A DNA stretch of 63,873 nucleotides, filler included, from Caldilineae bacterium (GCA_037446815.1; 5 parts of 5 records of this genome joined end to end with filler, not necessarily neighbours in it), one strand, 5' to 3'; numbered from the whole stretch's first letter, positions 1-55,574 are shown. The notes: generated by a model from the letters alone, not told the origin. Numbers and translations are program-made.

Positions 1-11
1 TGCTCCTTCTG

Positions 12-1310
12 GTGAGCGCCTGCGCCGCCAACACTGCGGCGGGAGGCCCAAGCCCCGCCACGCCCCCCGCCGCGCTGCCCGCGCCGACGCAACTTCGCGC
101 GACCGGCTCAACCTCGCTCGCCACCGTCTGGGAAAAGCAATTTGACAACAACGGCAGGGCCGACCTCGCCGCTTCCATTGTGGAAACGCCCGACGGCGAC
201 CTGGTTATCGTCGGCGCTACGGGCCCAACCCCCTGCCTGCTGTGGTGCAACACCGACGGCTGGATCATCAAAATCAACGCCCGCGGCGACCTGCTCTGGC
301 AGCGCCAGATCGGCGGCAACGGCGCCGACTCCTTCAACTCCGTGATTCTCAAAGGGAACAACTACTGGGTTACCGGCACCAAATACGTGTTTCCCTATGC
401 CTACCAGGCGTGGCTCGTGGAAATCGCCCCCGATGGCAGTGTGGTCTGGGAGAAAACCTTCGGCGGCAGCCAGGACGAATTCGTCGTGGAAACCATCGCC
501 ACACCCGATGGCAATTTCCTCATGACCGGCCGCACCGTATCGTTCGGCGTCCAGGATGACAAAGGGGACGTGTGGCTGGTCAAACTGGACCCCGACGGCA
601 ACATCCTCTGGAGCACCACCCACGATCTGGGCGCCGAAGATGGCGGCACCTCCCTCATCGCCTGGACATCCGGTCGCTACATCCTCACCGCCGACACGTG
701 CACGGCCGACTGTCGCAGCATCTTGACGCCCCAAATCTTCACCACCTACCTGGTGCTTGACGGCAATGGAAACATCCTCAAATCGCGGACCTTCGCCGAA
801 GGCCCCAAGAACAAGTTCGGCGCCATCAAACCCACCCGCGATGGCGGCGCGGTCATCGTCGGCGGAACCAGCATGCAGGAGGACTTTCCAAGCGCAGACA
901 CCTGGATCGTCAAACTGGATGCCAACGCTGACGTGGCGTGGACGAAGGTCTTCAGCAGTTACGGGCGCTACGATGGCGCCTACGACGTGGTGCAGATGCC
1001 CGACGGGGGCTACGTCGTGTCGGCATATACCCAGGCGTACCAAACACCGGAGATGGACTTTGACAACTTCTGGCTCATACGGTTGAACAGCGCCGGCGAC
1101 ATCCTCTGGTCCCGCATCTGGGGCGGCCCGGAAAATGACGATCCCCTGTCCGTGATTCGCACGTCCGATGGCGCAATCGTGGTAGCCGGATTCAAGGATG
1201 CCGTCTCCTGGCCGATACAGGAAATCCCCGGCCCGTCGGATGCCTATGTCATCAAACTGACCGACGCCCAGACGCTGTTTCTTCCTTGCGTGTTTCGGGC
1301 CGCCCAGTAG
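12..1310 (+). CDS. Secreted/lipoprotein beta-propeller repeat protein (5' end probably truncated by window edge)
   Basis: Repeated 'W(L/I)(V/I)KLDxxGxILWxRxxGG' blades, a Pro/Ala/Thr linker after 'LLVSAC' (lipobox-like), and a C-terminal TLFLPCVFR motif. Confidence 0.8.
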   Translation: MSACAANTAAGGPSPATPPAALPAPTQLRATGSTSLATVWEKQFDNNGRADLAASIVETPDGDLVIVGATGPTPCLLWCNTDGWIIKINARGDLLWQRQIGGNGADSFNSVILKGNNYWVTGTKYVFPYAYQAWLVEIAPDGSVVWEKTFGGSQDEFVVETIATPDGNFLMTGRTVSFGVQDDKGDVWLVKLDPDGNILWSTTHDLGAEDGGTSLIAWTSGRYILTADTCTADCRSILTPQIFTTYLVLDGNGNILKSRTFAEGPKNKFGAIKPTRDGGAVIVGGTSMQEDFPSADTWIVKLDANADVAWTKVFSSYGRYDGAYDVVQMPDGGYVVSAYTQAYQTPEMDFDNFWLIRLNSAGDILWSRIWGGPENDDPLSVIRTSDGAIVVAGFKDAVSWPIQEIPGPSDAYVIKLTDAQTLFLPCVFRAAQ

Positions 1311-1334
1311 GGCCGCGGGGACAACCGTCCACCC

Positions 1335-1757
1335 CTACCCCGCCACCTCCGCCAGCGCCGCGTCCAACTCCCCCAGCGAACCCACCACCCGCGTGGACAG
1401 AAAGCGCACCGCCCAGTTCCGCGCCAGCGGCGATACGGTGATGACCGTCTTGCCGGCCCGGCGGGCCTCCCACATCTCCACCGCCGTGCCCATGCTGCAC
1501 GCGGGCACGTAGGCGATCACCACGTCGGCGGCCCGCGCCTCCTCAATCATCGCGAAGAACGTCTCCCGCGCGCGCTCATCGGAGTAGTCCAGGCTATTCG
1601 GGTGCAGTGCCACGGGGTCCACGATGCGGGCGTCGGGGAAGCGACGCCGAATCGCCGCCGCAATCTCTGCGCGGTAGTCCTGCTCGTGCATCCCGTCGGC
1701 CAGCGAACCCTGGATGATGCCCGCGATGAAAAACGTCAGCCCCACAGACACCCCCAC
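1335..1757 (-). CDS. Nucleoside 2-deoxyribosyltransferase-like protein
   Basis: FFIAG...ADVVIAYVPACSMGTAVEMWEA matches the NDT/DNPH1-like 'SxGTAxE' motif. Confidence 0.6.
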   Translation of the reverse strand: MGVSVGLTFFIAGIIQGSLADGMHEQDYRAEIAAAIRRRFPDARIVDPVALHPNSLDYSDERARETFFAMIEEARAADVVIAYVPACSMGTAVEMWEARRAGKTVITVSPLARNWAVRFLSTRVVGSLGELDAALAEVAG

Positions 1758-1759
1758 TC

Positions 1760-1840
1760 AACACAGAGATTCACCGCAGAGAGGCACAGAGCGCGCAGAG
1801 AAAATCAGGAGGCTCTGCGCCCTCCCCGTCTCCGCGGTGC
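1760..1840. repeat. Imperfect inverted repeat built from CAGAG-rich short units
   Basis: caccgcagagaggcacagagcgcgcagag ... ctctgcgccctccccgtctccgcggtg between buk and the downstream gene. Confidence 0.5.
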
Positions 1841-1849
1841 GAAGAAGAA

Positions 1850-2914
1850 TCACGCGTACTCCCTGGCCTCTTCCTCGCCGCGCAGCACGCGGAGCGCGCC
1901 CATGGTCATCGCCTCCATCTCATCCTCGCCCGGGAAGATGAGCACCGGCGCGATCCACTCCACCCGCTCGCGCACCCAGCCCGTGAGCATCTCCGAGTGG
2001 GCCAGCCCGCCCGTCAGCACGATGGCGTCCACTTTCCCGTACAGCACCGTCGCCATGCCGCCGATCTCTTTGGCAATCTGATACGCCATCGCCTCGTACA
2101 CCAGGCGCGCATGCTCGTCCCCCTCGGCGATGCGGCGCTCCACCTCGCGCGCGTCGTTGGTCCCCAGGTGCGCCACCAGCCCCCCGCCGCCCACGCAGCG
2201 CCGCCACAACTCGTCAAAGGTGTACTTGCCCGAATAGGCGAGCCGCAGCAAATCGCCGATGGGAAGCCCGCCCGCCCGCTCGGGCGAGAACGGCCCCGTG
2301 CCATCCAGCGCCTGGTTCACGTCAATCATGCGCCCCTTGCGGTGCGGGCTTACGGATATCCCGCCGCCCATGTGGACAACCACGAGATTGAGTTCCTCGT
2401 AAGGCTTGCCTAGCGCCTTGGCCGCCTTGCGGGCTGCCGCCTTCAGGTTCAGGGCGTGCGACAGGCTCTTGCGCTCAATCTCCGGCAGCCCGCTGATGCG
2501 CGCGATAGGCTCAAACTCGTCCACCGACACGGGATCTACGATGAACGCCGGCGCCCCGGCTCGGTCTGCGATCTCCCGCGCGATGAACGCGCCCAGATTG
2601 CTCACGTGCTCACGTTTGGGCTGGCGCAGGTCATCCAGCATGCGTTCGTTGATGCGGTACACGCCGCTGGGGATGGGAGGCAGCGCGCCGCCCCGCCCCA
2701 CCACCGCATGCAGCGACTTCAGGTCAACGCCCTTCTCTTCCAACACGCGCAGGATAACGTCGCGGCGGAATTCGTACTGATCCACAATGCGCTTGTACTG
2801 GGCGATCTCCTCCGCCGAGTGTCGGATGACCTCCACAAACACCGGCGACTCATCCTCGTACAGCGCGACCTTCGTGGACGTGGAACCCGGATTGATGCTC
2901 AGCACCCGATACAT
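1850..2914 (-). CDS. buk: Butyrate kinase
   Basis: INPGSTSTKVA, VVGRGG, SHALN, HMGGGIS, GPFSPERAG, LTGGLA and PGEDE motifs. Confidence 0.95.
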   Translation of the reverse strand: MYRVLSINPGSTSTKVALYEDESPVFVEVIRHSAEEIAQYKRIVDQYEFRRDVILRVLEEKGVDLKSLHAVVGRGGALPPIPSGVYRINERMLDDLRQPKREHVSNLGAFIAREIADRAGAPAFIVDPVSVDEFEPIARISGLPEIERKSLSHALNLKAAARKAAKALGKPYEELNLVVVHMGGGISVSPHRKGRMIDVNQALDGTGPFSPERAGGLPIGDLLRLAYSGKYTFDELWRRCVGGGGLVAHLGTNDAREVERRIAEGDEHARLVYEAMAYQIAKEIGGMATVLYGKVDAIVLTGGLAHSEMLTGWVRERVEWIAPVLIFPGEDEMEAMTMGALRVLRGEEEAREYA

Positions 2915-2946
2915 GCCTCACCTCATTGTGGGAGTCGTCATTGACG

Positions 2947-3972
2947 CTAGGCGTCGTCGCGCCACAAAATGCGGCCATCCACCTCGGCTAGGCTTCCGCA
3001 GCCCGTGAGGATCATGGCAGAGCGCAACTGATCCGCGTACTGGGCCAGGAGCGCGGCGACCGCTTCCTTGCCGCCGCCGACCGCCGCGATGCTCATCGGG
3101 CGCCCCACCATCACGGCGTCCGCGCCCAGCGCCAGCATCTTCAGCACATCGTACCCGGAGCGCACCCCGCCATCCGCGAGAATGGTGATTTGGCCTTTCA
3201 CCCGCGCCGCGATAGACGGGAGCACGTCCGCCGTGCCCGGCGTATGGTCAAGGATGCGCCCGCCGTGGTTGGACACGACGATGGCCGCCGCGCCGGTGTC
3301 CACGGCCATCTCGGCCTCGTCGGGCGTCATGATGCCCTTCAGAATGAACGGCCGTCCCATGCCGGCGATGATCTCCTTCCACGCGGCGGCGGGCTTGGGG
3401 CCGACGTACTGCCCCGCGCGCACCATGCCGATAATCCCCGCCGCGTCTATATCCACGCCCACAGCCCACGCGCCCGCCTCTTCTGCGCGGCGGAGCAGGC
3501 GAACGATGTCCTCTGAGCGTCGCGGCTTGGAGATGAAACACCCGCGGCCCTCATACCGCGCGATGGTGGCAAATCCGACCTCGGCCAGCGCGGGATTCGG
3601 CCCATCGCCGGCCATGCCCAGCGAGCCCGCAGCCACCGCGCCGCCCAGCAGGCCGTCGGCCAACTCGGCTTCGGACACCGCATCGTTCATGTTGAGGGTA
3701 GTCCCCGCCACCGGCGCGACCAGGATGGGCATATCCAGGGCGTGCCCGAACAAGGTGATGCGTATGTCGGGCGTGTCCTTCCCGTGCAGCGTGCGCAGGT
3801 TCAGATGGTACCGACCCAGCGCCGCGACGTTGTTCATGAACGACGAGCCCGACCCAAGGCCCCCCATGCCCGGCATCTCCCCCGCGCATACTCGCCCGTC
3901 GCAGACTGGACACACCCGGCACGCGCCGCGGAACCGCTCCTTCGCCGTTCGCTTGATCTCACTCCAGTCCAC
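2947..3972 (-). CDS. FMN-dependent alpha-hydroxy-acid oxidase/dehydrogenase with N-terminal Cys cluster
   Basis: ILKGI, VSNHGGR, DGGVRSG and GRP motifs; N-terminal CRVCPVCDGRVC; start GTG 3972 or TTG 3990. Confidence 0.88.
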   Translation of the reverse strand: MDWSEIKRTAKERFRGACRVCPVCDGRVCAGEMPGMGGLGSGSSFMNNVAALGRYHLNLRTLHGKDTPDIRITLFGHALDMPILVAPVAGTTLNMNDAVSEAELADGLLGGAVAAGSLGMAGDGPNPALAEVGFATIARYEGRGCFISKPRRSEDIVRLLRRAEEAGAWAVGVDIDAAGIIGMVRAGQYVGPKPAAAWKEIIAGMGRPFILKGIMTPDEAEMAVDTGAAAIVVSNHGGRILDHTPGTADVLPSIAARVKGQITILADGGVRSGYDVLKMLALGADAVMVGRPMSIAAVGGGKEAVAALLAQYADQLRSAMILTGCGSLAEVDGRILWRDDA

Positions 3973-3979
3973 GGCCCAC

Positions 3980-4489
3980 CTACCTGTCAAAATAGATGTT
4001 CTTGCCGGTCGCCGACAGCGGGATACCCATCACGAAGTCGGCGTCTATCAGGCCCATCTCACGGGCGACCACGCCGATGCGATACATGATGCGGTTGTCC
4101 ACGTTCAGAATCTGCGCCGTTTTCACCGCAGACCCCAGGGCGATGCCCATGTCCAGCAGGCGGTAGGCGCATTGAGGGCCTTTGAACTCGCCCTCAAAGG
4201 TATTGATCTTCAAGCACTTCTCAAACCCGCACGCGCCGCAATTCAGGCCGACGGGCGTAGCGTCCTTGATGCCCACGAGCACCACGGCCGCCGAATTCGC
4301 CACGTTCTTGCCGTCGCGGTCAAAGTTGACCTTGCCCGTGCGAACGCCGAACTCCACCATTTTCTCGGCCAGTTCGCGCAGGATGTCGCCCTTGAGCGTG
4401 CGCACGACGACAAAATCCTTGCCCGCCGCCTTGGGGGCCGTGCGCGCAGCGACCTCCATGAGTGCGGTTACGACGTCCATTGCTTCCAT
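3980..4489 (-). CDS. DUF2148 / ferredoxin-like nitroreductase-fold protein
   Basis: AARTAPK, NCGACGFEKC, DMGIALGSA, VDNRIMY and GKNIYFDR are typical of this family. Confidence 0.85.
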   Translation of the reverse strand: MEAMDVVTALMEVAARTAPKAAGKDFVVVRTLKGDILRELAEKMVEFGVRTGKVNFDRDGKNVANSAAVVLVGIKDATPVGLNCGACGFEKCLKINTFEGEFKGPQCAYRLLDMGIALGSAVKTAQILNVDNRIMYRIGVVAREMGLIDADFVMGIPLSATGKNIYFDR

Positions 4490-4519
4490 GTAAGCGTACC
4501 TCCGTAATACGTGTTGATG

Positions 4520-5161
4520 TCATGTCACGGCGTTGGCGTCTGAATCGCCGGGTTTCCCCTGCTCGGCCGACGCCTTGCGATAACGCTTGAGTTCGGCGCT
4601 CGCCCCAATTGCATATATAGACCCCGGCAGCAGGTCAATGACCTCATTGAATTGGTGCACCGCCTCGGCAGACCTACCGCTCCGCATCAGCGCCAGGCCG
4701 AGGTTGTACCGGCAGGCCGCCTCGTGCTTGGGCGACAGGTTGCCCTTGTCCGCGTTCCCGATGAGGCCGGTCAGTATTTGGATCGCCTCTTCCAGCCTGC
4801 CCTCTTTCAGTGAGCACGCGCCGCGGTTGATGCGAGCGGCCCAGCGGCTTGCATCGCCCAGGGCGATGGCCTCGCCCGCGTCGTACAGCCGCCGCGCCAG
4901 CGACCATCGTCCCATGCGTGCCGCCGCATTGCCCAAATCAATCGCCAATTGCGCGCGCATCGTCAGCAGGTACAGCAGCACGATGAAGAGAACGGGATGG
5001 AGCATGAAACCGCTAACCCAGTAGATAACATAGACGAGCGCGGTGAACGCGAGGCTCTCGCCGGCAAAGCGCAGGCTCAAAGGCTCGCGTCGCAGCAGCG
5101 ACAACCCGCCGAACAGCCCCACATACAGCAGTCCCAATAGCAGCGTCAGCCAAAGGCCCAT
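4520..5161 (-). CDS. Membrane protein with three N-terminal TM helices and C-terminal TPRs
   Basis: Hydrophobic N-terminus from MGLWLTLL (GGAGG RBS upstream); TPR-like 'RYNLGLALMRSGRSAEAVHQF'. Confidence 0.75.
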   Translation of the reverse strand: MGLWLTLLLGLLYVGLFGGLSLLRREPLSLRFAGESLAFTALVYVIYWVSGFMLHPVLFIVLLYLLTMRAQLAIDLGNAAARMGRWSLARRLYDAGEAIALGDASRWAARINRGACSLKEGRLEEAIQILTGLIGNADKGNLSPKHEAACRYNLGLALMRSGRSAEAVHQFNEVIDLLPGSIYAIGASAELKRYRKASAEQGKPGDSDANAVT

Positions 5162-5231
5162 CGTGAACCCTCCTGGCAAAACAAGGCCCTTGTCGCTCGG
5201 GACAAGGGCCTTGCGCGAGCAATGCGGCACC

Positions 5232-6209
5232 CTATTTGAACAGGTCGCGAGCGGTGCGCTCCAGCATGGTAACGCCGCGAACCTCGGTCTCGTACAGCGG
5301 CACAATCGCCCGCACGCCATCGCCGAAGGTGCGGTGAATCACGCCCATGTACTCGTCCTGCATAGCGACTCGGTTGCGGACAAACTCCGGCGTCGTATCG
5401 GTAACCGTGCTCTTGTCAATCACCATGTTCACGATGACGCCGCCCACGGGAATCCCGAACTCGGTGAACCAGTTGATGAACCGCGTGATGACCGCGATGG
5501 GGAGCGCTTCGGGCAGCGTTACGAAGAAGAAGGCCGTCTTCTCCGCGTCAGTCAGGAGTTCCTTCGCATGCCCCATCCGATCCTTGAAGCGGAGCAGGTA
5601 CTCCATGAGCGGGTCCTTCTCCTGCTTCTTCTTGCTGTAGGACAGGAGTTCGCGCAGGCTTCGCGCCTCTTCGCGGCTTTGCACCATCTTGTTCACCCAC
5701 AGCGAGTACACCGAGGACATGCCGAGCAAGCGCCGCGCATTGGCCGTGGGCGCCGTGTCAAAGACATACGCCTCGTACTTGTCCTCAAACATGATGTCAA
5801 TCATGTTCTCAAACATCGCCGACTCTTCAAACGCCGGGTTCATCGTGGCCGATTCCACGAACTCATCCGCCTTGGTCTTGATGTCGGCGAACTTGAGGAA
5901 CCACTCTATCTTCTCGCGAATCTCCCGCTTGGACTTCTCTATGGTCTCTCGCGTATCAATCTCGTGGGCCCACAGGTTCGGCACGCCGGTTACGGGCGTT
6001 GGCTTGCCGAAGACATCCTGCCCGAGCAGGCTGGTCAGGCTATGCACCGGGTTGGTGGAGGCCAGAAGCGTACGCTTGCCCTGCTGCGCAAGCCACAAGG
6101 CCGCCGTGCCTGCCATCACCGTCTTCCCGACGCCGCCTTTGCCTCCGAAGAAGACGTACTTCATCTTAGGATGTTCGGCGAGGAATTGCTGCGTTGTCTT
6201 GGTAATCAT
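5232..6209 (-). CDS. ArsA/Get3-family ATPase (switch I Asp->Asn)
   Basis: GKGGVGKT deviant Walker A, STNPVHSL, DTAPT; no Cys residues. Confidence 0.92.
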   Translation of the reverse strand: MITKTTQQFLAEHPKMKYVFFGGKGGVGKTVMAGTAALWLAQQGKRTLLASTNPVHSLTSLLGQDVFGKPTPVTGVPNLWAHEIDTRETIEKSKREIREKIEWFLKFADIKTKADEFVESATMNPAFEESAMFENMIDIMFEDKYEAYVFDTAPTANARRLLGMSSVYSLWVNKMVQSREEARSLRELLSYSKKKQEKDPLMEYLLRFKDRMGHAKELLTDAEKTAFFFVTLPEALPIAVITRFINWFTEFGIPVGGVIVNMVIDKSTVTDTTPEFVRNRVAMQDEYMGVIHRTFGDGVRAIVPLYETEVRGVTMLERTARDLFK

Positions 6210-7189
6210 GCGCCATTACCTCCAAACATCGCATTGGCGACCTTCTCTATCATCGGCAAGCCGGTGATATCCCGCTCAAACTCGGGCACCCACGCCAACA
6301 CTTCGTCGCCGAAGGTGCGATTGATTTTGTCCAGATACTGCCGCTGCATCTCAATGCGGTTGCGGAGATACGCGGGAATGTCCTGCTGGGTCAGTTCGGG
6401 CGGGATCACGCGGTTGACGATGTAGCCTGATAGGGGTACGTTGAACTTCGCGAACAGCCCCGCCGCCTTCTGCGTGTCCAGGATAATCATCTCCTCGGGG
6501 ACCAGCACGAAGAAGAACGCCGTCTTCTGCTTGTCCGTCAGGATGCTGGAAGAAGTGTTGATGCGGTACTTGATGTACTGCAATTCCTTGAGAATCTTGT
6601 CCTCTTCGGTCTCCTTCTCCCGCCGCATCACGGCCGCCACCTTGGAGTACTCTTCCATCTCTTGACGCAGCGCCGTGATCTTGTCAATCCACTCATCATA
6701 CACCGACGCCATGCTCAGGTAGTACAGCGCGTGGCCGAGCGGCACCAGGTCGTAGATGTAGTAGTCGTACTGGCCGCCCACCACGATGTCCACCACCTCA
6801 TCAAAGATGGCGCTTTCCTCCATGGCGGGTTCCGCCGCGGCCGCCTGGATGTAGTTCTCAATCTCCTGCGGCACCGCCGGCAGGCCGTACATGTCCAGAA
6901 TCTTGCGCCGAATCTCCTCCTGGTACTCCTTGATCCGCTTATCCGCATCAATCTCCTGAGCATACAAGTTCGGCATGATCTCCACGGGGCCTTTGCCGAA
7001 GATGTCCCGCTGGAAGATGTCCGAAAGCGAAGCCTGAGGATCCACCGAGAAGACGAGCACGCGGTGCCCCTGCTTCGCCAGCCAATAGGCAGTGGCAGCG
7101 GAGAACGTGGTCTTCCCCAGGCCGCCCTTGCCCCCAAACATGATGTACCGACGATCGGGATACTGTTTGAAAATCTGCGCTAGCGACAA
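6206..7189 (-). CDS. ArsA/Get3-family ATPase (degenerate switch II)
   Basis: GKGGLGKT, SVDPQASL, DLVPLGH; no Cys; stop overlaps the partner's start (ATGA). Confidence 0.92.
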   Translation of the reverse strand: MSLAQIFKQYPDRRYIMFGGKGGLGKTTFSAATAYWLAKQGHRVLVFSVDPQASLSDIFQRDIFGKGPVEIMPNLYAQEIDADKRIKEYQEEIRRKILDMYGLPAVPQEIENYIQAAAAEPAMEESAIFDEVVDIVVGGQYDYYIYDLVPLGHALYYLSMASVYDEWIDKITALRQEMEEYSKVAAVMRREKETEEDKILKELQYIKYRINTSSSILTDKQKTAFFFVLVPEEMIILDTQKAAGLFAKFNVPLSGYIVNRVIPPELTQQDIPAYLRNRIEMQRQYLDKINRTFGDEVLAWVPEFERDITGLPMIEKVANAMFGGNGA

Positions 7190-7246
7190 CGCCCATCACC
7201 CCTTTCTTGGTGTTGTGAGATTCATGTTGTGGCGACCGCAAATCGC

Positions 7247-7525
7247 CTATGCAAGCGCGTCGGTGAGGTCGCGCTCGCGGAGCATGCGCCGCTTCCATGT
7301 GGCAATCTGCGGCACCACGTAGGGCAGCAGGCGCAGCGAGTAGTACGGCGGAAGAATCGGGATCCCCAGCAGGTCGCCCATCGTGATGAGGATGAACAGG
7401 TGCTCCATGCTGCCCCGGGTCTTCAGGGCGAAGCGCGCCATGTCGTGGCCCGCCATGCCGTACAACACGCTCTTTGTGGCATCTAGGAACCGCTTGAACA
7501 CACCCCGTTTCTCTTCTTCTGTCAT
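7247..7525 (-). CDS. Small CstA/ArsA-associated protein, paralog 1
   Basis: GDLLGIPILPPYYSLRLLPY...WKRRMLRERDLTD; strong RBS; paralogous to 7538-7831. Confidence 0.8.
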   Translation of the reverse strand: MTEEEKRGVFKRFLDATKSVLYGMAGHDMARFALKTRGSMEHLFILITMGDLLGIPILPPYYSLRLLPYVVPQIATWKRRMLRERDLTDALA

Positions 7526-7537
7526 ATCTGCTCCTCT

Positions 7538-7831
7538 CTATCCGATTTCGGAATCAAACAAGTCCGTTAGGTCTCTTTCCCTCAGGATACACCGCTTCCA
7601 GCGGTCTATCATCGGCACTGTGTACGGAATCAGGCGCAACGAATAGTACGGCGGGAGAATGGGCAAACCAATCATGTCGCCGAATACGACCAGCACAAAA
7701 AACCGCTCCAACTCCCCGCGCTGCTTCTGCAATTCGCGCACCCAGTCATACACGGCCATCCCGTAGACGATCTCTCGCAGCGTCCGCCAGGCGCGCCGAA
7801 GTCTGCTCTCCTCACACACCTCTTCGCCCAT
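7538..7831 (-). CDS. Small CstA/ArsA-associated protein, paralog 2
   Basis: GDMIGLPILPPYYSLRLIPY...WKRCILRERDLTD; start taken at ATG 7831, just after the ferritin stop. Confidence 0.8.
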   Translation of the reverse strand: MGEEVCEESRLRRAWRTLREIVYGMAVYDWVRELQKQRGELERFFVLVVFGDMIGLPILPPYYSLRLIPYTVPMIDRWKRCILRERDLTDLFDSEIG

Positions 7832-7833
7832 CG

Positions 7834-8277
7834 CTAGGCCGTCCCCAGCGCCCGGATTTGGCGTTTCATCCACGTGGCGTGGGCAATCTCATCCTGCAGG
7901 TGCTCGCTGATCATGGAGAGGGTGTCTTCGTCATCAGCGATGTCGGCCACGGCCATGGCGTAATGCTTGATGGCCGCCTGCTCCTCGCTCAACTCCAGGC
8001 GCAGCATATCCACCGTGCTGAGCGCCTGGCTCGCGGCCGCTGCAACCCTGCCGGCGACCGTGGAAGCCCCGCCGGGCTGCACCGGCTTGCCGCCCAGTTC
8101 CCGGATGCGGCGCGACAGATTGGCCGCGTGCTCCTGTTCAACCTCCAGGATCGCGCGCACGCCCTCGGCCACGGCCGCCTCGCGGATCACCTTGGCGTGG
8201 GCCGCGTACATCTCCACCGCCGCGAGTTCGGACTTCAGGGCGTCCTGCAGAACTTGGATAATCTCCTCTTGGGTCAT
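7834..8277 (-). CDS. Ferritin-like (bacterioferritin/rubrerythrin fold) protein
   Basis: E..Y, EQEH, E and DEIAH di-iron-type ligands; 'RIRELGGKP'. Confidence 0.85.
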   Translation of the reverse strand: MTQEEIIQVLQDALKSELAAVEMYAAHAKVIREAAVAEGVRAILEVEQEHAANLSRRIRELGGKPVQPGGASTVAGRVAAAASQALSTVDMLRLELSEEQAAIKHYAMAVADIADDEDTLSMISEHLQDEIAHATWMKRQIRALGTA

Positions 8278-8289
8278 GGCAAGGACCTC

Positions 8290-8754
8290 CTAGGTGCTGG
8301 CAGCCTGCGCCACAGGGACGAACAAAACGGGCACAGGCGCGCGACGGCGGACCTTGTCCTCCACGTTGCCCATGAGCCAACGAGACAAGGCCGCGCGCCG
8401 ATAGGTGGGCATGACGATCAAATCGCATTCCTTCGCGGCCGCATACTCCACGATGGCGTCCGCCTCTCCGCGTTCCGTGAAGACCACTTCGCCGGAAAAC
8501 CGGACACCCGCGTCTTTGCCGAGCCTCGCAAGGCGGCTGAACGCGGCCTGCGCATCCTCGCGCAGCCTAGCCCCACGGGAGCCTGGCTCCGTTTGGATCT
8601 TGTCAAAGAATGCCTCGCCGGACGACACAACGGGGATGATGCGCAGGCCAAAGACATCTGCCTTGTGAGAGGCAGCGAGGAAGAACACGTGCCGGGCCAC
8701 CGCGTCGGGAACCCCGCCCGTGTCAAGCGGGAGCAGAATCCTCCGATACACCAT
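8290..8754 (-). CDS. Universal stress protein (UspA family)
   Basis: YRRILLPLD...CDLIVM...LMGNVEDKVRRRAPVPVLFV. Confidence 0.88.
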   Translation of the reverse strand: MVYRRILLPLDTGGVPDAVARHVFFLAASHKADVFGLRIIPVVSSGEAFFDKIQTEPGSRGARLREDAQAAFSRLARLGKDAGVRFSGEVVFTERGEADAIVEYAAAKECDLIVMPTYRRAALSRWLMGNVEDKVRRRAPVPVLFVPVAQAAST

Positions 8755-9118
8755 TACCCTCCCTCGCCATGGCCAAGTGCAGCCGAGAAATGAGCGCATC
8801 GGCTGCCTCGTGGCCGACGAAACGCTCCTTGCCCAAGACGAACGTCGGATAGCGGCGAACCCCATGTCGCAGCGACAGGTACAGCCCGCGCAGGGACCGC
8901 GGATCGGACCACCGGATGACCAGGTCATTGCCGCCCATCTGAGCCGCGCGGCTGACGATCCCCAACGTCGCCTCAAAATCGCTGCGCCACTCCTCCGGAT
9001 AGGCGTCCTGTCCCCTGTCCATGCCCGCGTCCGTCAACATGACCTGGCAAGTAAAGCACAAACCAACCCTCTCCAGGATCGGTGCAATCACCTCCAGCAG
9101 GATTGGTTTGCGTGCCAT
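8723..9118 (-). CDS. Hypothetical thioredoxin-like protein
   Basis: CFTC motif and 'GVRRYPTFVL' cis-Pro-like motif; lies in the operon between cstA and usp. Confidence 0.6.
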   Translation of the reverse strand: MARKPILLEVIAPILERVGLCFTCQVMLTDAGMDRGQDAYPEEWRSDFEATLGIVSRAAQMGGNDLVIRWSDPRSLRGLYLSLRHGVRRYPTFVLGKERFVGHEAADALISRLHLAMAREGNGVSEDSAPA

Positions 9119-9272
9119 AGGATCACCCATTTTGTAGAGTCTGCCTATATGATACCTTGACAGGTACGTACTGACATTGTACGTCAGCCGCTCCGTTCCG
9201 TCAAGAATCGCAGGCAGGCGCGATGGGAGAGCACCATCGCTCTCCCATCGCTCGGATTACAACCATACGCCG

Positions 9273-11012
9273 TTAGGCCTTTGTCTTGGCCAGTTCGGCG
9301 CGATACCGCCGGATGGCACCCACTCCGTCCACCACCAGGATAACGGCCAGCACGACCAGGATCAGGGACAGCACTCCAATGGTTACCTGGGCAACGATGC
9401 CCTGCCAGGCCGTTTGCTTGGGCAAGTTGAGGAAGAAGGCCGCATAGGCCGACCAGAGGAGCGCCCCGACGGTGGTAACGAACATGAAGATGAAGGGCCA
9501 GAATGTCCACTGGTAGTTCTTGCCCTTGGACATGAGCCACAGGGTAATCAGCAGCAGAGCCAGGGATGCCATCAACTGGTTGGCAGCACCGAACACGCCC
9601 CAAATCTGGATGAAGGGCATGATCCAGATCAGAAGGAGGGTGAGGACAAGGGCGATGATGGTGCCAACATGGACATTGCGAAGGATGGGGAAGCGATCCC
9701 CCAGTGCCTCAGCGCTGGCCACGCGCATGAAGCGCACCACCAAGTGCATGATGGTCAGCGCCATCAGGGTAAGGAAGATCGCCCCATAGGCGGCACCGAA
9801 CCCCTTGCCCAGCGCGTTGTCCAGCCCCCAATTGTTCAGGAACGCGGAGAGACCCTTAGAGAAGACGGCCGCAGCGCCCCCCGGACCTCCGGCATCCATG
9901 TAGCCCTTGAAGCTGCCGAAGGCCACGGTCGCGGTCAGAAACGCCATGGTGGCGAAGAACATCTCAAAGAACATGGCGCCGCCGCCCACAAAGAGGGCAT
10001 CGCCTTCGCGCTCCAACTGCCGCGCCGTGCCCGACGATGATACCAGGCTATGCCAGCCTGAGATGGCGCCGCAGGCGATGGTCACGAACAGCATCGGCCA
10101 GAGAGGGCCGGACACGGTCCGGAAGGTCGTGGTCGCCGGAAAGTCCCCCATTCCTGGGCGACCAATCAGGATCCCGATGACACCGCCCAGGACGCCCAGG
10201 CTCACGATCCAGAAGGCCACATAGTTGATCGGCTGCGCCCAGCGCCAAATAGGGAGAACGGCGCCCAGGTAGCAGAAGATCACCACCAACAGGCTGCCGA
10301 TGAACCTTGCCAGCGTTACGTCCAGGAACAGTTTCGGGCTGGCCGCGCCGCCGGTAGTCCCGTAGAGGGCGGAGAAGAAGTTCCGCACCGGCTCGGCCAT
10401 GCCCACCCAGATACCCACCAGTGCGAGCACAACGGTGATGACGGTCGTCAGGATGATGTCCTGCTTCCACTTGTAGGTCATCTGGCCGGCCAGCAGGCCC
10501 ACCAGGATCACGATGATCACCCCCAGCGGGACTGCCGGGTTGGTCAGCAGGTTGAACCCCACCTGGATACCAAATGCCCCCATGATCATCAGTAGGTAGA
10601 CGTAGATGAAGGCCAGCAGAATGCCCCGGCCGCGCGGAGAGATGAGCCGATAACTCAACGCCCCGAAGGTCTGGCCTTCCTCACGGACACCCACGATAAT
10701 GCTGCTGTAGTCCTGAACCCAGCCGATGAAGAAGGTCCCGAGCACAATCCACAGCAGCGCGGGGAGCCAGCCCCACTGGACAGCCACAATCGGCCCGAGG
10801 ATGGGCCCCAAAGCGGCGATGGACTTGAACTGGTAGCCAAAGAGGACATTGCGGTTTGCGGGGATGAAGTCTACGCCGTCCATGTACATCTTGGCAGGCG
10901 TGGCCTTCTGGTTGTCTGGCTGGATGATGCGGCGGTCAATGGACTTGGCATAGAGGCCGTACCCAACGGCGATCCCCACAGCGGAAATGAGTAGCACCAA
11001 CAGCGAATTCAT
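9273..11012 (-). CDS. cstA: Carbon starvation protein A (CstA-family peptide/pyruvate transporter)
   Basis: TPA...DGVDF, SIAALGPILGP, FVTIACGAISGWHSL and FGAANQL motifs; many TM helices. Confidence 0.93.
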   Translation of the reverse strand: MNSLLVLLISAVGIAVGYGLYAKSIDRRIIQPDNQKATPAKMYMDGVDFIPANRNVLFGYQFKSIAALGPILGPIVAVQWGWLPALLWIVLGTFFIGWVQDYSSIIVGVREEGQTFGALSYRLISPRGRGILLAFIYVYLLMIMGAFGIQVGFNLLTNPAVPLGVIIVILVGLLAGQMTYKWKQDIILTTVITVVLALVGIWVGMAEPVRNFFSALYGTTGGAASPKLFLDVTLARFIGSLLVVIFCYLGAVLPIWRWAQPINYVAFWIVSLGVLGGVIGILIGRPGMGDFPATTTFRTVSGPLWPMLFVTIACGAISGWHSLVSSSGTARQLEREGDALFVGGGAMFFEMFFATMAFLTATVAFGSFKGYMDAGGPGGAAAVFSKGLSAFLNNWGLDNALGKGFGAAYGAIFLTLMALTIMHLVVRFMRVASAEALGDRFPILRNVHVGTIIALVLTLLLIWIMPFIQIWGVFGAANQLMASLALLLITLWLMSKGKNYQWTFWPFIFMFVTTVGALLWSAYAAFFLNLPKQTAWQGIVAQVTIGVLSLILVVLAVILVVDGVGAIRRYRAELAKTKA

Positions 11013-11176
11013 CTCCTACTCTCCTTACTGCATTTGCAACTGGAAATCGGACGACCAATAGGTGAGACGGACTCAGCCAGCCGAGGTAGAAAAGTCAGAC
11101 CAGCCCCTGCATCACCTCCTTTCACGCAGAAACACAAGCGACGACGGGTTGTCAGACAGGCCGTGGATACACATGT

Positions 11177-11205
11177 ATTTTACCACCAACTTGCGCCGTT
11201 GTCAA
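11177..11205 (-). promoter_or_regulatory. Sigma70-type promoter for the cstA operon
   Basis: Minus strand TTGACA-17 nt-TAAAAT with an extended TG. Confidence 0.7.
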
Positions 11206-11315
11206 CAGTTTCTTTCGCCATTATGTAAACAATACGGAACTCCTCACTGCTATAAACACAAGGGCAGCGAAAAGTTGCGCCCCGCCGACGAGCGCGCCCT
11301 GCCCCCACAAGTGCC

Positions 11316-11566
11316 ATGTGTCATTCTGAGCGGCGAAGCCGCGAAGAATCTCGCCCACCGCCAGGCTCCGCCTCACTCGCTAAGCGCGAGGGGACAACGT
11401 GCGACGCACCTCGGAGGTGCGTCGCACGTTCACTATTCGCACAGAGTCGCGCGACTTGCGGTTACGAAACTGTCATTCTGAGCGGCGAAGCCACGAAGAA
11501 TCTCGCCCCTCACCCCAGCCCTCTCCCGAAAGGCGAGGGCGTATCGCCTTCGGCTCAGCATGACCG
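11316..11566. repeat. Cluster of REP-like palindromic units
   Basis: tgtcattctgagcggcgaagcc(g/a)cgaagaatctc twice; aacgtgcgacgcacctcggaggtgcgtcgcacgtt hairpin; ccctcaccccagccctctcccgaaaggcgaggg. Confidence 0.8.
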
Positions 11567-11638
11567 CGTGGAGAGGTGGCGCGGGGAGCGTGCCAACGCA
11601 GTTACCCAACACGACACGAAACCGCGTGTCATGCCCGC

Positions 11639-11788
11639 GACTCGGTTCCATCTTGTGTTGGTGAAACGCATGGACACTCTCCTCGTGTGTCGTTGCGAGC
11701 GAAGCGAAGCAACCTCGCGCCCCGGCGATTGCTTCGGGCGCTGCGCGCCCTCGCAATGACAAACACCAACAGACTTTGGAACCGAATC
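11639..11788. mobile_element. 150-bp MITE copy, TSD ATGCCCGC
   Basis: Ends GACTCGGTTCCA...TGGAACCGAATC; 8-bp direct repeat on both sides. Confidence 0.85.
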
Positions 11789-11876
11789 ATGCCCGCGACA
11801 CGGTTGCCATCATGACAAACTCGCGTTATAATATGCATGAACCGATTGCTCACCACAGACGTCGGGCAAGGAAACC

Positions 11877-12581
11877 ATGGGCATCAAGATTCTCCTCATT
11901 GATGACGAGCCGATGATGAAGCGAATGCTGGCGGATGTCTTCTGCCCGCCCGACTATGAGTTCGCCGCCGCCGCGGACGGGCGCGAAGGGCTCCGCATGG
12001 TCTACGATTTCAGGCCCGACGTGGTCCTCCTGGACATCATGATGCCCGGAATGAGCGGCTGGGAAGTCTGCCAGCGCATTCGGGAGTTCTCCACCGTCCC
12101 CATCGTCATGCTTACCGCCATGGGGCAGACTACCGACAAGGTGCGCGGCCTGGACCTGGGAGCCGACGACTACATCACCAAGCCCGTTGACCTTGAGGAA
12201 ATCAAGGCGCGAGTCCAGGCGCTCTTGCGCCGCGTGGCGCTCGGACAACAGGCAACATGCCTCTACTCGGCGGGCGGCGACTATCTGACCATAGACCCCA
12301 TCGCGCGGCGTGTCCGCGTCGCAGGTGAGGACATCGCACTGACTCCCACCGAGTACAACCTCCTCCTGTACTTCATCACCCACCCCGACCGCGCCATCTC
12401 ATACGGCGAACTTCTGGACAACGTCTGGGGTCCCGGCTACGAAGCCGCCGTCAGCAATCTGAAACTCTACATCCTCTATCTGCGACGCAAGATAGAACCT
12501 GACCCGGACAATCCTATCTACATCCTCAACGAGCGCGGCGTAGGTTATCGCTTCGTCCGCTCACCTCTGCCGGAGAAGTGA
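11877..12581 (+). CDS. OmpR/PhoB-family response regulator
   Basis: LLIDDE, LLDIMMP, GADDYITKP receiver domain; winged-helix LTPTEY...RRKIE...ERGVGYRF. Confidence 0.93.
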   Translation: MGIKILLIDDEPMMKRMLADVFCPPDYEFAAAADGREGLRMVYDFRPDVVLLDIMMPGMSGWEVCQRIREFSTVPIVMLTAMGQTTDKVRGLDLGADDYITKPVDLEEIKARVQALLRRVALGQQATCLYSAGGDYLTIDPIARRVRVAGEDIALTPTEYNLLLYFITHPDRAISYGELLDNVWGPGYEAAVSNLKLYILYLRRKIEPDPDNPIYILNERGVGYRFVRSPLPEK

Positions 12582-13114
12582 ACGTGGCCATCTACCAATT
12601 TGAGGACCGCATCCCAACCATCGGCAACGGCACCTATGTCCATCCCTCCGCATCCGTCATCGGCGACGTGTCCATCGGCGACGGATGCTGGATTGGCCCG
12701 GGAGCGTGCATTCGCGGCGACTACGGGCGCATCACCATCGGCAACTGCACGAGCATAGAGGAGAACGTGGTGGTGCACGCCAGGCCAGGCGAGCAAACCG
12801 CCATCGGCGACTGGGTTACCATCGGCCACGCCGCCGTCATCCACAACGCCACGATCCACGACTACGCGGTCATCGGCATGCGAGCCGTTGTCTCCGACTG
12901 GGCTGTGGTAGGGGTATGGAGCGTCGTCGCCGAGGGCGCGGTAGTTCGCCAGAGCCAGGAGGTCCCTGCGGGCAAGATCGCCGTCGGCGTGCCCGCGCGC
13001 CTTTTGGACAAGGACGTGAGCGACGAGTATCGCGCCCAGTGGACCGAGTTCAAGCGAATCTACGTGGACCTGGCGCGGCGCTACCCCCATGGCCTGAAAA
13101 CGCTTCAGGCGTAG
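12578..13114 (+). CDS. Gamma carbonic anhydrase-like (YrdA/PaaY) hexapeptide-repeat protein
   Basis: IGDVSIG...IRGD...VVH...TIGHAAVIH. Confidence 0.9.
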   Translation: MNVAIYQFEDRIPTIGNGTYVHPSASVIGDVSIGDGCWIGPGACIRGDYGRITIGNCTSIEENVVVHARPGEQTAIGDWVTIGHAAVIHNATIHDYAVIGMRAVVSDWAVVGVWSVVAEGAVVRQSQEVPAGKIAVGVPARLLDKDVSDEYRAQWTEFKRIYVDLARRYPHGLKTLQA

Positions 13115-13153
13115 CGGCCAACCCCGCATTCGCCCTCGCGAACAGGCGCGCGC

Positions 13154-13795
13154 TCATGGCTTCAGGACGACCTCCTCCTTGCCCTGTAGCCGGTCCAGAA
13201 TCCGCGTGCAGATGATATCCAGGTGTGCCGCCGAGTTGACGAAATCCAAATCATCGGCGGGAATCGTCAGCACCGGGCACAGGCTGAAGCCGTCCATCCA
13301 TGCCGCGTACAGGTCGTTCAACCGCGCCAGGTAGTCCTCGCCGATGCCCGACTCAATGCTCCGTCCCCGCATTCGGATTCGGCGCGCCAAGGTGGGCACC
13401 GACGCCTGCAGGTAGATGAGCAGGCTGGGAATCGGAAGCTGCGCGATGATCATGTCATAGAGCCGCACGTAGGCCGCGAAGTCCCTCTGGCTCATCATCC
13501 CCATATCAAACAGCGCCTGGGCGAAGATGTGGCGATCCTCGTAGATGCTGCGGTCCTGAATCACCGACTCGGGCAGCGCGGCAATGCGCCGGTGCAATTC
13601 TGCTCGGTGCCCGAGGAAGAAGATCTGCAGGTGAAAACTCCACTGCTTCATATCGGCGTAGAAGTCGGCCAGGTACGGATTATCATCCACGCTCTCGTAG
13701 TAGGCTTTCCACCCCAGCCGTTGCGCCACGAGCGTAGTCAAACTGGTCTTGCCCGATCCGATGTTGCCCGCCACGATGACGAAGCGCTTCACCAT
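13154..13795 (-). CDS. Deoxynucleoside kinase
   Basis: GNIGSGKTS, QDRSIYED and RIRMRGR motifs. Confidence 0.92.
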   Translation of the reverse strand: MVKRFVIVAGNIGSGKTSLTTLVAQRLGWKAYYESVDDNPYLADFYADMKQWSFHLQIFFLGHRAELHRRIAALPESVIQDRSIYEDRHIFAQALFDMGMMSQRDFAAYVRLYDMIIAQLPIPSLLIYLQASVPTLARRIRMRGRSIESGIGEDYLARLNDLYAAWMDGFSLCPVLTIPADDLDFVNSAAHLDIICTRILDRLQGKEEVVLKP

Positions 13796-13940
13796 GGGAA
13801 TAGCAGCCCTCCTTGTGGAATGCGTTGACACACGGCCCGCCCATTGTACCCCAACAGGCGCGATACGTCCAGCCCAAGCGCATTTGGAGCCGGTTTCCTC
13901 TTGTGTTGGTGAACCGTAGGCGCACTCTCCTCGTGTGTCA

Positions 13941-14040
13941 NNNNNNNNNNNNNNNNNNNNNNNNNNNNNNNNNNNNNNNNNNNNTTAATTAATTAANNNN
14001 NNNNNNNNNNNNNNNNNNNNNNNNNNNNNNNNNNNNNNNN
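13941..14040. other. Artificial contig-joining linker
   Basis: 100-nt N run containing TTAATTAATTAA (stops in all frames). Confidence 0.97.
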
Positions 14041-27866: not shown

Positions 27867-27966
27867 NNNNNNNNNNNNNNNNNNNNNNNNNNNNNNNNNN
27901 NNNNNNNNNNTTAATTAATTAANNNNNNNNNNNNNNNNNNNNNNNNNNNNNNNNNNNNNNNNNNNN
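27867..27966. other. Artificial contig-joining linker
   Basis: N run with TTAATTAATTAA; preceded by a MITE end at 27844-27866. Confidence 0.97.
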
Positions 27967-41687: not shown

Positions 41688-41787
41688 NNNNNNNNNNNNN
41701 NNNNNNNNNNNNNNNNNNNNNNNNNNNNNNNTTAATTAATTAANNNNNNNNNNNNNNNNNNNNNNNNNNNNNNNNNNNNNNNNNNNN
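41688..41787. other. Artificial contig-joining linker
   Basis: N run with TTAATTAATTAA; MITE fragments on both sides (right end at 41788-41859). Confidence 0.97.
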
Positions 41788-55474: not shown

Positions 55475-55574
55475 NNNNNNNNNNNNNNNNNNNNNNNNNN
55501 NNNNNNNNNNNNNNNNNNTTAATTAATTAANNNNNNNNNNNNNNNNNNNNNNNNNNNNNNNNNNNNNNNNNNNN
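55475..55574. other. Artificial contig-joining linker
   Basis: N run with TTAATTAATTAA. Confidence 0.97.

Follow-up and report, generated by a model that had tools for sequence, protein, structure and literature searches.

A cstA-cstX-arsA-type locus of a Caldilineae bacterium with paired DUF7990 proteins and paired single-domain Get3/ArsA-family ATPases

The linkage of a CstA-family transporter gene with arsA homologues was described by Castillo and Saier in 2010 (PMC2963123). In the accessible text of that paper, 26 instances of cstA with an arsA homologue were reported, 24 of which included a protein of ~90 aa named CstX. The ATPases were single-domain proteins of ~330 aa, sometimes encoded as adjacent pairs, and arsR was not present. 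The metalloid-binding cysteines of Escherichia coli ArsA (C113, C172, and C422) were not conserved in the single-domain homologues, and the Asp of their SXD motif was replaceable by Asn only. CstX was proposed to couple ATP hydrolysis to CstA, and ArsA-ArsB was cited as the precedent (PMC2963123). A literature search on CstA with ArsA or Get3, on CstX, and on DUF7990 found no experimental follow-up, and the accessible part of a 2019 survey of Get3-like proteins mentioned CstA 0 times (PMC6593721).

A locus of this type is found at positions 5232–11012 of a 63,873-nucleotide stretch of DNA (the window) from Caldilineae bacterium (GCA_037446815.1). The window consists of several contigs joined by paired runs of N (13941–14040, 27867–27966, 41688–41787, and 55475–55574), and positions 1–13940 alone are contiguous with the locus. 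This contig (C66, 13.9 kb) belongs to a metagenome-assembled genome of 3.19 Mb in 265 contigs, which is 93.6% complete. In order of transcription, the cluster was composed of cstA, a gene for a CxxC protein, a universal stress protein (USP) gene, a ferritin-like gene, two small paralogous genes (smA and smB), two Get3/ArsA-family ATPase genes (ars1 and ars2), and a gene for a membrane tetratricopeptide repeat (TPR) protein (Table 1). An earlier note on this DNA had described the first eight of these genes as co-oriented and mostly tightly spaced; all eight are present on the minus strand with matching coordinates, and the spacing is indeed tight, with a 4-nt overlap between ars1 and ars2 and a 12-nt gap between smA and smB. 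The co-oriented TPR gene just downstream, absent from its list, is a further member of the cluster. The note was also right that both ATPases are free of cysteine (0 Cys in ars1 and 0 Cys in ars2) and that ars genes are lacking nearby, since ArsB, Acr3, ArsC, and ArsR were not found among the 17 contig open reading frames (ORFs) scanned.

The features of the published type were all found here: cstA, a ~90-aa small protein, ~330-aa single-domain ArsA homologues, and no arsR. The locus is a further member of the cstA-cstX-arsA operon type and provides a CstA-family transporter with an accessory module of its own. Neither the linkage nor the energising hypothesis is new, both having been in print since 2010 (PMC2963123); the earlier note had also remarked that such linkage occurs in some prokaryotes. 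The small proteins belong to the family DUF7990 (PF25952), and CstX is presumably the same family because of its size, its position, and its predicted central hydrophobic segment. Added here are the assignment of the small proteins to a Pfam family and their pairing as an A-type and a B-type, and the conserved split by which one ATPase has Asp and the other Asn. A TPR partner, a presumed thioredoxin-fold partner, and the almost perfect co-occurrence with CstA across genomes are likewise added, and the USP and ferritin-like genes are demoted to a local insert.

In a scan of 185,579 species genomes, at least 595 relatives were confirmed, and the best 80 loci were kept, a set biased to close relatives. 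These loci came mostly from Chloroflexota, with some from Desulfobacterales and Syntrophobacterales; beyond the named genome contigs, the range was drawn from a few source names and from the accessible text of the 2010 paper (PMC2963123). The conserved order was cstA, CxxC, smA, smB, ars1, ars2, and TPR, of which the CxxC and TPR genes were not constant, and it was the same in 80/80 fetched relatives as far as the contigs reach. The arrangement is far beyond chance, and the conserved synteny of cstA, small proteins, and two ATPases expected in the earlier note was borne out. When the gene orders were read by eye, both ATPases were found in 74/80 loci; in the remaining six, no more than 1214 bp of downstream sequence is available. 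Of the 73 loci that reach 500 bp or more upstream, 67 had two DUF7990 copies beside two ATPases. Where 3.5 kb or more of upstream sequence was available (58 loci), cstA lay immediately upstream in 45 loci and was present in the locus in 51. Among 20 regions fetched at class level, 16 had the core of small genes and ATPases and four were lone extra copies; cstA was in the locus for 12 of the 16 core loci, and the four genomes without cstA adjacent to the module each had one CstA elsewhere.

The co-occurrence of DUF7990 and CstA across genomes was almost perfect, the counts being patterns rather than statistics because related genomes are not independent. In the class sample of 41 genomes, DUF7990 was found in 22, mostly as two adjacent copies; 21 genomes had both CstA and DUF7990, one had CstA only, one had DUF7990 only, and 18 had neither. 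The gene of the CstA-only genome was located at a contig end, and the DUF7990-only genome was 75% complete with the gene at a contig start. In the phylum sample of 301 Chloroflexota, DUF7990 was found in 28 genomes and CstA over the cut-off in 32, with 27 having both, one DUF7990 only, five CstA only, and 268 neither (one sub-threshold CstA match was counted as none). In Desulfobacterota, a CstA gene lay within ~4 kb of DUF7990 in 5/5 strong-match genomes, and in genomes with two CstA paralogues only one adjoined the module. The module was rare in Desulfobacterales, with four strong matches in 121 genomes. The smB proteins of two Desulfobacterales loci (L078 in G335 and L075 in G336) were 80–83% identical to the Chloroflexota copy of the window, and this closeness in an order where the module is rare is suggestive of horizontal transfer.

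Both ATPases exceeded the cut-off of the TRC40/GET3/ArsA model TIGR00345 (135 bits), with 233 bits for ars1 and 215 bits for ars2. The deviant Walker A motif was intact, as GGKGGLGKT in 85/87 ars1 orthologues and GGKGGVGKT in 82/82 ars2 orthologues. Switch I read SVDP in 86/87 ars1 orthologues and STNP in 81/82 ars2 orthologues, and a second motif read YDLVPLGH in 85/87 and FDTAPTAN in 81/82, respectively. The Asn of ars2 was aligned with the Asp of the STDP motif in 3ug6, 3zq6, 5zme, and 1f48. The switch-I Asp, expected in every subunit of Get3 proper, is kept in ars1 and replaced by Asn in ars2. In yeast Get3, D57 has been reported as catalytic, and D57N binds ATP without hydrolysis and traps the ATP-bound state (PMC12506534, accessible text). 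Because of the SVDP/STNP split and this precedent, ars1 and ars2 are a conserved asymmetric couple, with one active site and another that is probably locked with ATP. Since the family is dimeric and the two genes are invariably adjacent, the couple is predicted to be a heterodimer. A four-protein complex prediction without controls (ars1, ars2, smA, and smB, with smB as the partner) scored 0.00 and 0.01, where the mark was 0.32, and is no evidence either way.

The closest PDB matches of both ATPases were archaeal Get3 homologues, 3ug6 (E values of 1e-62 for ars1 and 2e-54 for the other ATPase) and 3zq6. Both were aligned to 3ug6 nearly gap-free over residues 6–324, which suggests that the Get3-type helical subdomain is kept. 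The CxxC zinc motif of Get3 was absent, as neither protein has a Cys; some functional Get3 homologues likewise lack it, according to the accessible text of the 2019 survey (PMC6593721). The metalloid-binding cysteines of ArsA were equally absent, 72/87 ars1 and 65/82 ars2 orthologues were Cys-free, and no Cys was conserved in either set. The scores for the ArsA equivalog TIGR04291 were 94.5 bits for ars1 and 111.3 bits for ars2, against a cut-off of 650. The two halves in one chain and the ars context of classical ArsA were not found, the proteins being single domains of 327 and 325 aa. The lack of cysteines and of ars genes and the low equivalog scores agree with the non-arsenic module proposed in the earlier note. 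A third Get3/ArsA-family gene of the genome (L001:1498-2673, contig C3) encodes a 391-aa protein whose C-terminal domain is HSP20-like (PF17886). This protein was the best Pfam ArsA match of the genome and is of the alpha-crystallin type given for Chloroflexi in the accessible text of PMC6593721.

The small proteins smA and smB were 54% identical over residues 11–90. Homologues of smB formed 6431 clusters at 90% identity (E value up to 1e-3), and PF25952, named DUF7990 in the cluster atlas, was annotated on 120/120 of those listed, one of them 98% identical, so that the family was assigned via homologue annotation rather than a direct profile scan. In a representative library, DUF7990 comprised 388 clusters at 50% identity. 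Pfam scans of 45 members (E value up to 10) gave scattered chance matches only, and a plasmid search with smB gave no match. The cory-CC-star model (NF041419) scored 30 and 33 bits for the small proteins (30 for smA), below its cut-off of 80, and neither protein ends in Cys-Cys, which we take to be the meaning of that name; a literature search by the names DUF7990 and cory-CC-star found nothing. Kinship with YbdD/DUF466 was rejected, as hhalign gave a probability of 0.2% over eight columns, which is no detectable homology. When metagenomes were scanned with P0233, a distant member, the one locus obtained (L123) was discarded as spurious. In family f36 genomes, a third DUF7990 copy was located directly after ars2 (L030:5830-6090 and others), giving three matches per genome.

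The core of DUF7990 was almost invariant and rich in Gly, Pro, and Tyr, and it was followed by a basic stretch. In the AlphaFold2 model, smB formed a two-helix hairpin (H3–52 and H59–91) with a mean predicted local distance difference test (pLDDT) of 66.8 and a predicted template modelling score of 0.27. In a naturally fused relative, the DUF7990 half was modelled as the same hairpin (H160–209 and H217–250, block pLDDT 57–86). The hydrophobic stretch of smB stops ~30 residues before the C-terminus. Over 48 loci, with the close kin of the window left out, smB was the most conserved gene of the cluster, with a median identity to the window of 87.5%, compared with 80% for ars1, 79% for ars2, 67% for CstA, and 61% for smA. 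Its identity was above that of each other gene in 47 to 48 of the 48 loci, which fits a part that would touch several partners.

Natural fusions joined the soluble components of the module. ArsA domains were found on 8/39 long DUF7990 homologues; when six of these fusions were inspected, two were clean and in frame with an ars1-type ATPase (P0282 and P0288), and four appeared frameshifted. Tandem DUF7990 proteins formed five clusters, of which P0272 was clean. The CxxC domain was joined to an A-type DUF7990 in four clusters (P0177, P0205, P0291, and P0296), and in several more an apparent second half of the CxxC domain, as judged by eye, was joined to a B-type DUF7990. One partial candidate for a fusion of CstA and DUF7990, P0161, was set aside as probably an artefact, since PF25952 was found on 0/120 of its best long relatives.

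The transporter belongs to the CstA family, with a PF02554 score of 393.5 bits against a gathering cut-off of 27. When it was compared with CstA of E. coli K-12 by BLASTP, the identity was 27% (E value of 2e-52). The score for NF011590, the E. coli-type pyruvate/H+ symporter equivalog, was 163.6 bits against a cut-off of 1188. Residues ~395–460 of E. coli CstA were missing from the window protein, as long gaps in the BLASTP alignment, and the Pfam match skipped profile positions 354–408.

The two cysteines of the CxxC protein, Cys25 and Cys28, are its only ones, and no Pfam or NCBIfam match was found. Two cysteines in the C..C arrangement were located within the first 45 residues in 45/47 orthologues. 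In the AlphaFold2 model of the fusion relative P0296, which stands here for the window protein, the CxxC domain had a pLDDT above 90, with the CxxC just before the helix H20–28. Among the PDB matches listed for this domain by Foldseek, most were thioredoxins and thioredoxin-like proteins, all of them weak (E value of 6e-3 and weaker, TMt up to 0.64), and the domain of the P0296 model appears as a thioredoxin-like fold. The PF00582 domain of the USP begins at residue 77 of a 228-aa ORF, and the start is therefore likely near 8754. The ferritin-like protein matched PF00210 with 46 bits and PF02915 with 37.5 bits, and was under the cut-offs of the encapsulin cargo, Dps, and bacterioferritin models. 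The USP and ferritin-like genes occurred together in 8/80 loci, each time placed after the CxxC gene and before the first of the small genes, and this low frequency and fixed position mark them as a lineage-specific insert. The redox, iron, and USP inputs proposed in the earlier note were thus only partly upheld: the USP and ferritin-like genes are not part of the core, while the CxxC gene is frequent, being present in 45/80 loci, and its domain is also found fused to DUF7990. The TPR gene was present in 60/80 loci, where it followed ars2 or was oriented divergently from cstA. TPR families matched residues 75–190 of its product, and Kyte-Doolittle windows of at least 1.6 at residues 1–24 and 36–76 marked a hydrophobic N-terminal part with three putative transmembrane segments.

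A coupling of the ATPase pair to CstA through the small hairpin proteins, by analogy with ArsA and ArsB, was taken as the tentative first choice, at a probability somewhat short of even. The CstA-family secondary transporter would work with a dedicated cytoplasmic ATPase complex, in which ars1 and ars2 would form the asymmetric heterodimer; ars1, with the switch-I Asp, would hydrolyse ATP, and ars2, with Asn, would bind ATP without hydrolysis. The predicted DUF7990 hairpins have a moderately hydrophobic tip rich in Pro and Tyr and conserved basic C-terminal arms. The tips would abut CstA within the membrane or at its surface, and the arms would grip the ATPase dimer. One lead is that the membrane receptors of Get3 also bind their ATPase by a helical hairpin and a basic motif. 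The ATP-driven closing and opening of the dimer would be passed on to CstA and would drive or assist transport, much as ArsB, a secondary carrier, is made to pump at the expense of ATP by ArsA. The CxxC protein, together with the USP and ferritin-like proteins in the present lineage, would add redox or stress inputs, and the TPR membrane protein may serve as a scaffold. This coupling was favoured because of the co-occurrence with CstA, the usual two-plus-two arrangement, the fusions among the soluble parts, and the extreme conservation of smB. The data establish the fold class, which genes are present and in what conserved order, their co-occurrence, and the motif asymmetry, whereas we infer the heterodimer, all contacts, which way the coupling runs, and the substrate.

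Several observations weigh against such a coupling. No fusion of CstA with DUF7990 was found among the long homologues of P0161 (best 120 of 232). The small-protein models were of low confidence (pLDDT 57–86 for the fusion half, mean 66.8 for smB). The best 19-residue Kyte-Doolittle means, 1.61 for smB and 1.75 for smA, are borderline for a membrane segment, and the hydrophobic stretch contains invariant Gly, Asp, and Pro residues. The apparently kept helical subdomain, which in Get3 holds hydrophobic helices, would be needless for a pure motor. In the survey, cstA was missing from 7/58 loci with enough upstream sequence and was not adjacent in 4/16 class-level loci. One complete Desulfobacterales genome has a single DUF7990 and two ATPases, with cstA on the opposite strand, and the 2:2 pairing is thus not universal. 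Finally, E. coli CstA is reported in the accessible text of PMC5847655 as a pyruvate importer, and its gene has no ATPase gene beside it.

That E. coli CstA is reported to transport on its own (PMC5847655) is also consistent with a regulatory gate, in which the ATPase dimer would act through the hairpins as a nucleotide switch on CstA, and as a redox switch via the CxxC protein, while transport stays proton-driven. One degenerate site, with Asn in 81/82 ars2 orthologues, resembles those of slow switch ATPases, and the neighbours are of the sensor type (the CxxC protein in 45/80 loci and the USP in 8/80), with the CxxC domain fused directly to DUF7990 in four clusters. However, degenerate sites occur in true pumps too, the two halves of ArsA being non-equivalent. 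The contacts of a gate would be as conjectural as those of the ArsA/ArsB-like coupling, and the sequence does not separate gating from energising. Pure gating was considered unlikely.

A Get3-like role in chaperoning or insertion was likewise regarded as doubtful. The heterodimer would shield the DUF7990 tips or nascent CstA helices in a groove of the Get3 type and deliver them to the membrane, and the small proteins would be clients that later become CstA subunits. The closest solved relatives and their full-length alignment with few gaps speak for this role, and CxxC-less bacterial and archaeal Get3 homologues have been discussed as likely binders of hydrophobic segments (PMC6593721, accessible text). 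The distance of ~30 residues between the hydrophobic stretch of smB and the C-terminus is in keeping with it. However, the stretch is of low hydrophobicity and interrupted by its invariant Gly, Asp, and Pro, and the C-terminal tails of the small proteins are strongly charged. A two-gene targeting factor for two 90-aa clients would be uneconomical, the clean fusions of DUF7990 with the ATPase (P0282 and P0288) suit a subunit better than a released client, and general duties could be served by the further Get3-like protein with the HSP20-like domain. The apparently retained helical subdomain and hairpins of only marginal hydrophobicity leave room for this role and for a plug, a reading judged quite improbable. 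In it, the hairpins would be mobile plugs instead of passive adaptors: the DUF7990 tips would be held in the groove of the half-dead heterodimer while ATP is bound, hydrolysis by ars1 would release them into CstA, and the presumed thioredoxin-fold partner, in some cases fused to the hairpin, would set the redox condition.

A stress-protection ATPase pair like mycobacterial BagA and BagB, unrelated to transport and linked to cstA by starvation co-regulation only, was judged very unlikely. The bagAB genes are described as having a likely part in protection against the toxicity of glycerol and of nitric oxide (PMC10597346, accessible text), the ATPases gave weak matches to both models, and four of the 16 class-level loci had no adjacent cstA. 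However, the scores were 49–50 and 35–37 bits against cut-offs of 400 and 521, the match to 6bs3 (Rv3679) was confined to the P-loop region with an E value of only 4e-7, and the near-perfect co-occurrence with CstA across genomes is hard to explain by co-regulation alone. A classical ArsA-type arsenite/antimonite efflux ATPase, for which the Pfam family name PF02374 alone speaks, is hardly credible for single-domain, Cys-free proteins far under the ArsA equivalog cut-off on a contig without ars genes among the ORFs scanned.

The coordinates are collected in Table 1. An in-frame ATG at 7831, directly after the ferritin-like stop, gives the 97-aa form of smA. The promoter-like site upstream of cstA is a lead only; the scan of the region gave four such sites in total compared with 2.1 (standard deviation 1.5) in shuffled sequences, neither promoter nor terminator counts were above the shuffles, and an Rfam scan of the contig gave no match.

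Table 1. Features of the locus in the window, listed in order of transcription, with the promoter-like site last.
Feature	Position	Strand	Evidence or remark
cstA: CstA-family transporter, 579 aa	9273..11012	-	PF02554, 393 bits
Probable thioredoxin-fold CxxC protein, 135 aa	8723..9130	-	Single CxxC, without Pfam family; fold modelled on a fusion relative
Universal stress protein (USP)	about 8290..8754	-	PF00582, 73.8 bits; lineage-specific insert
Ferritin-like four-helix protein, 147 aa	7834..8277	-	PF00210, PF02915; lineage-specific insert
smA: DUF7990, A-type	7538..7831 (97 aa, ATG) or ..7873 (111 aa, GTG)	-	Paralogue of smB
smB: DUF7990 (PF25952), B-type, 92 aa	7247..7525	-	Homologues carry PF25952
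ars1: single-domain Get3/ArsA-family ATPase, 327 aa	6206..7189	-	PF02374, 243 bits; catalytic-type
ars2: single-domain Get3/ArsA-family ATPase, 325 aa	5232..6209	-	PF02374, 227 bits; switch-I Asn
Membrane TPR protein, 213 aa from internal Met	4520..5161	-	TPR families
Promoter-like site upstream of cstA	11177..11205	-	11/12 hexamer matches, TG before -10

Downstream of the cluster on the same strand (window 1850–4489), genes were found for a DUF2148 protein, an FMN-dependent 2-hydroxyacid dehydrogenase-like protein, and butyrate kinase. These genes were found again after the cluster in several relatives (L041, L092, and partly L110), and they may hint that the substrate of CstA is perhaps a short-chain or hydroxy acid. 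An OmpR-type response regulator gene is located divergently upstream of cstA (window 11877–12581); it was not seen beside the cluster in the tabulated gene orders of the relatives. At window 12–1310, a 432-aa ORF without a Pfam match has an Ala/Pro-rich N-terminus and many repeated stretches containing Asp-Gly.

The value of the locus lies in testing the coupling idea rather than in the discovery of the linkage. To our knowledge, ArsA-ArsB is the only well-studied pair in which a soluble ATPase of this superfamily makes a secondary carrier pump at the expense of ATP. If CstA were a second case, one independent of arsenic, the design would prove to be general. A function would then also be at hand for DUF7990, whose clusters number 6431 at 90% identity, and for the large group of Get3-like proteins in bacteria that have so far no assigned role (PMC6593721, accessible text). 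Release of the tips from the heterodimer into CstA, if true, would mean that a secondary transporter is gated by a chaperone, a regulatory principle that has not been described for any carrier. The natural Asp/Asn pair is a ready experimental handle, and the module is spread over Chloroflexota and Desulfobacterota and, according to the accessible text of PMC2963123, archaea.

When the locus was compared with the cstA-cstX-arsA type of 2010, the CstA, the ~90-aa protein, the ~330-aa ATPases, the absence of arsR and of the ArsA cysteines, and the coupling proposal were the same. The paper was based on 26 SEED instances and trees, and its accessible text does not present the conserved Asp/Asn split as a trait of paired ATPases, nor does it include the A-type and B-type small proteins, the presumed thioredoxin-fold protein, or the TPR partner (PMC2963123). 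Archaeal Get3 (3ug6/3ug7 and 3zq6) provided the best matches of the ATPases, with full-length alignment and the P-loop and switch regions in common; it forms homo-oligomers with the switch-I Asp, whereas here an obligate pair of paralogues has one Asn and no Cys and is encoded alongside a transporter. E. coli ArsA-ArsB shares the superfamily of the ATPase and the proposed docking on a secondary carrier; however, ArsA joins two domains in one chain, has metalloid-binding cysteines, and is encoded in an ars operon context, none of which is found here. E. coli CstA-YbdD (DUF466) has the same succession of a CstA-family transporter gene and a small protein gene, but YbdD has no detectable homology to DUF7990 by hhalign and no ATPase genes are adjacent. 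Mycobacterial BagA/BagB (Rv3679/Rv3680) have the same two adjacent Get3-like ATPase genes, whereas their similarity to ars1 and ars2 was weak (35–50 bits).

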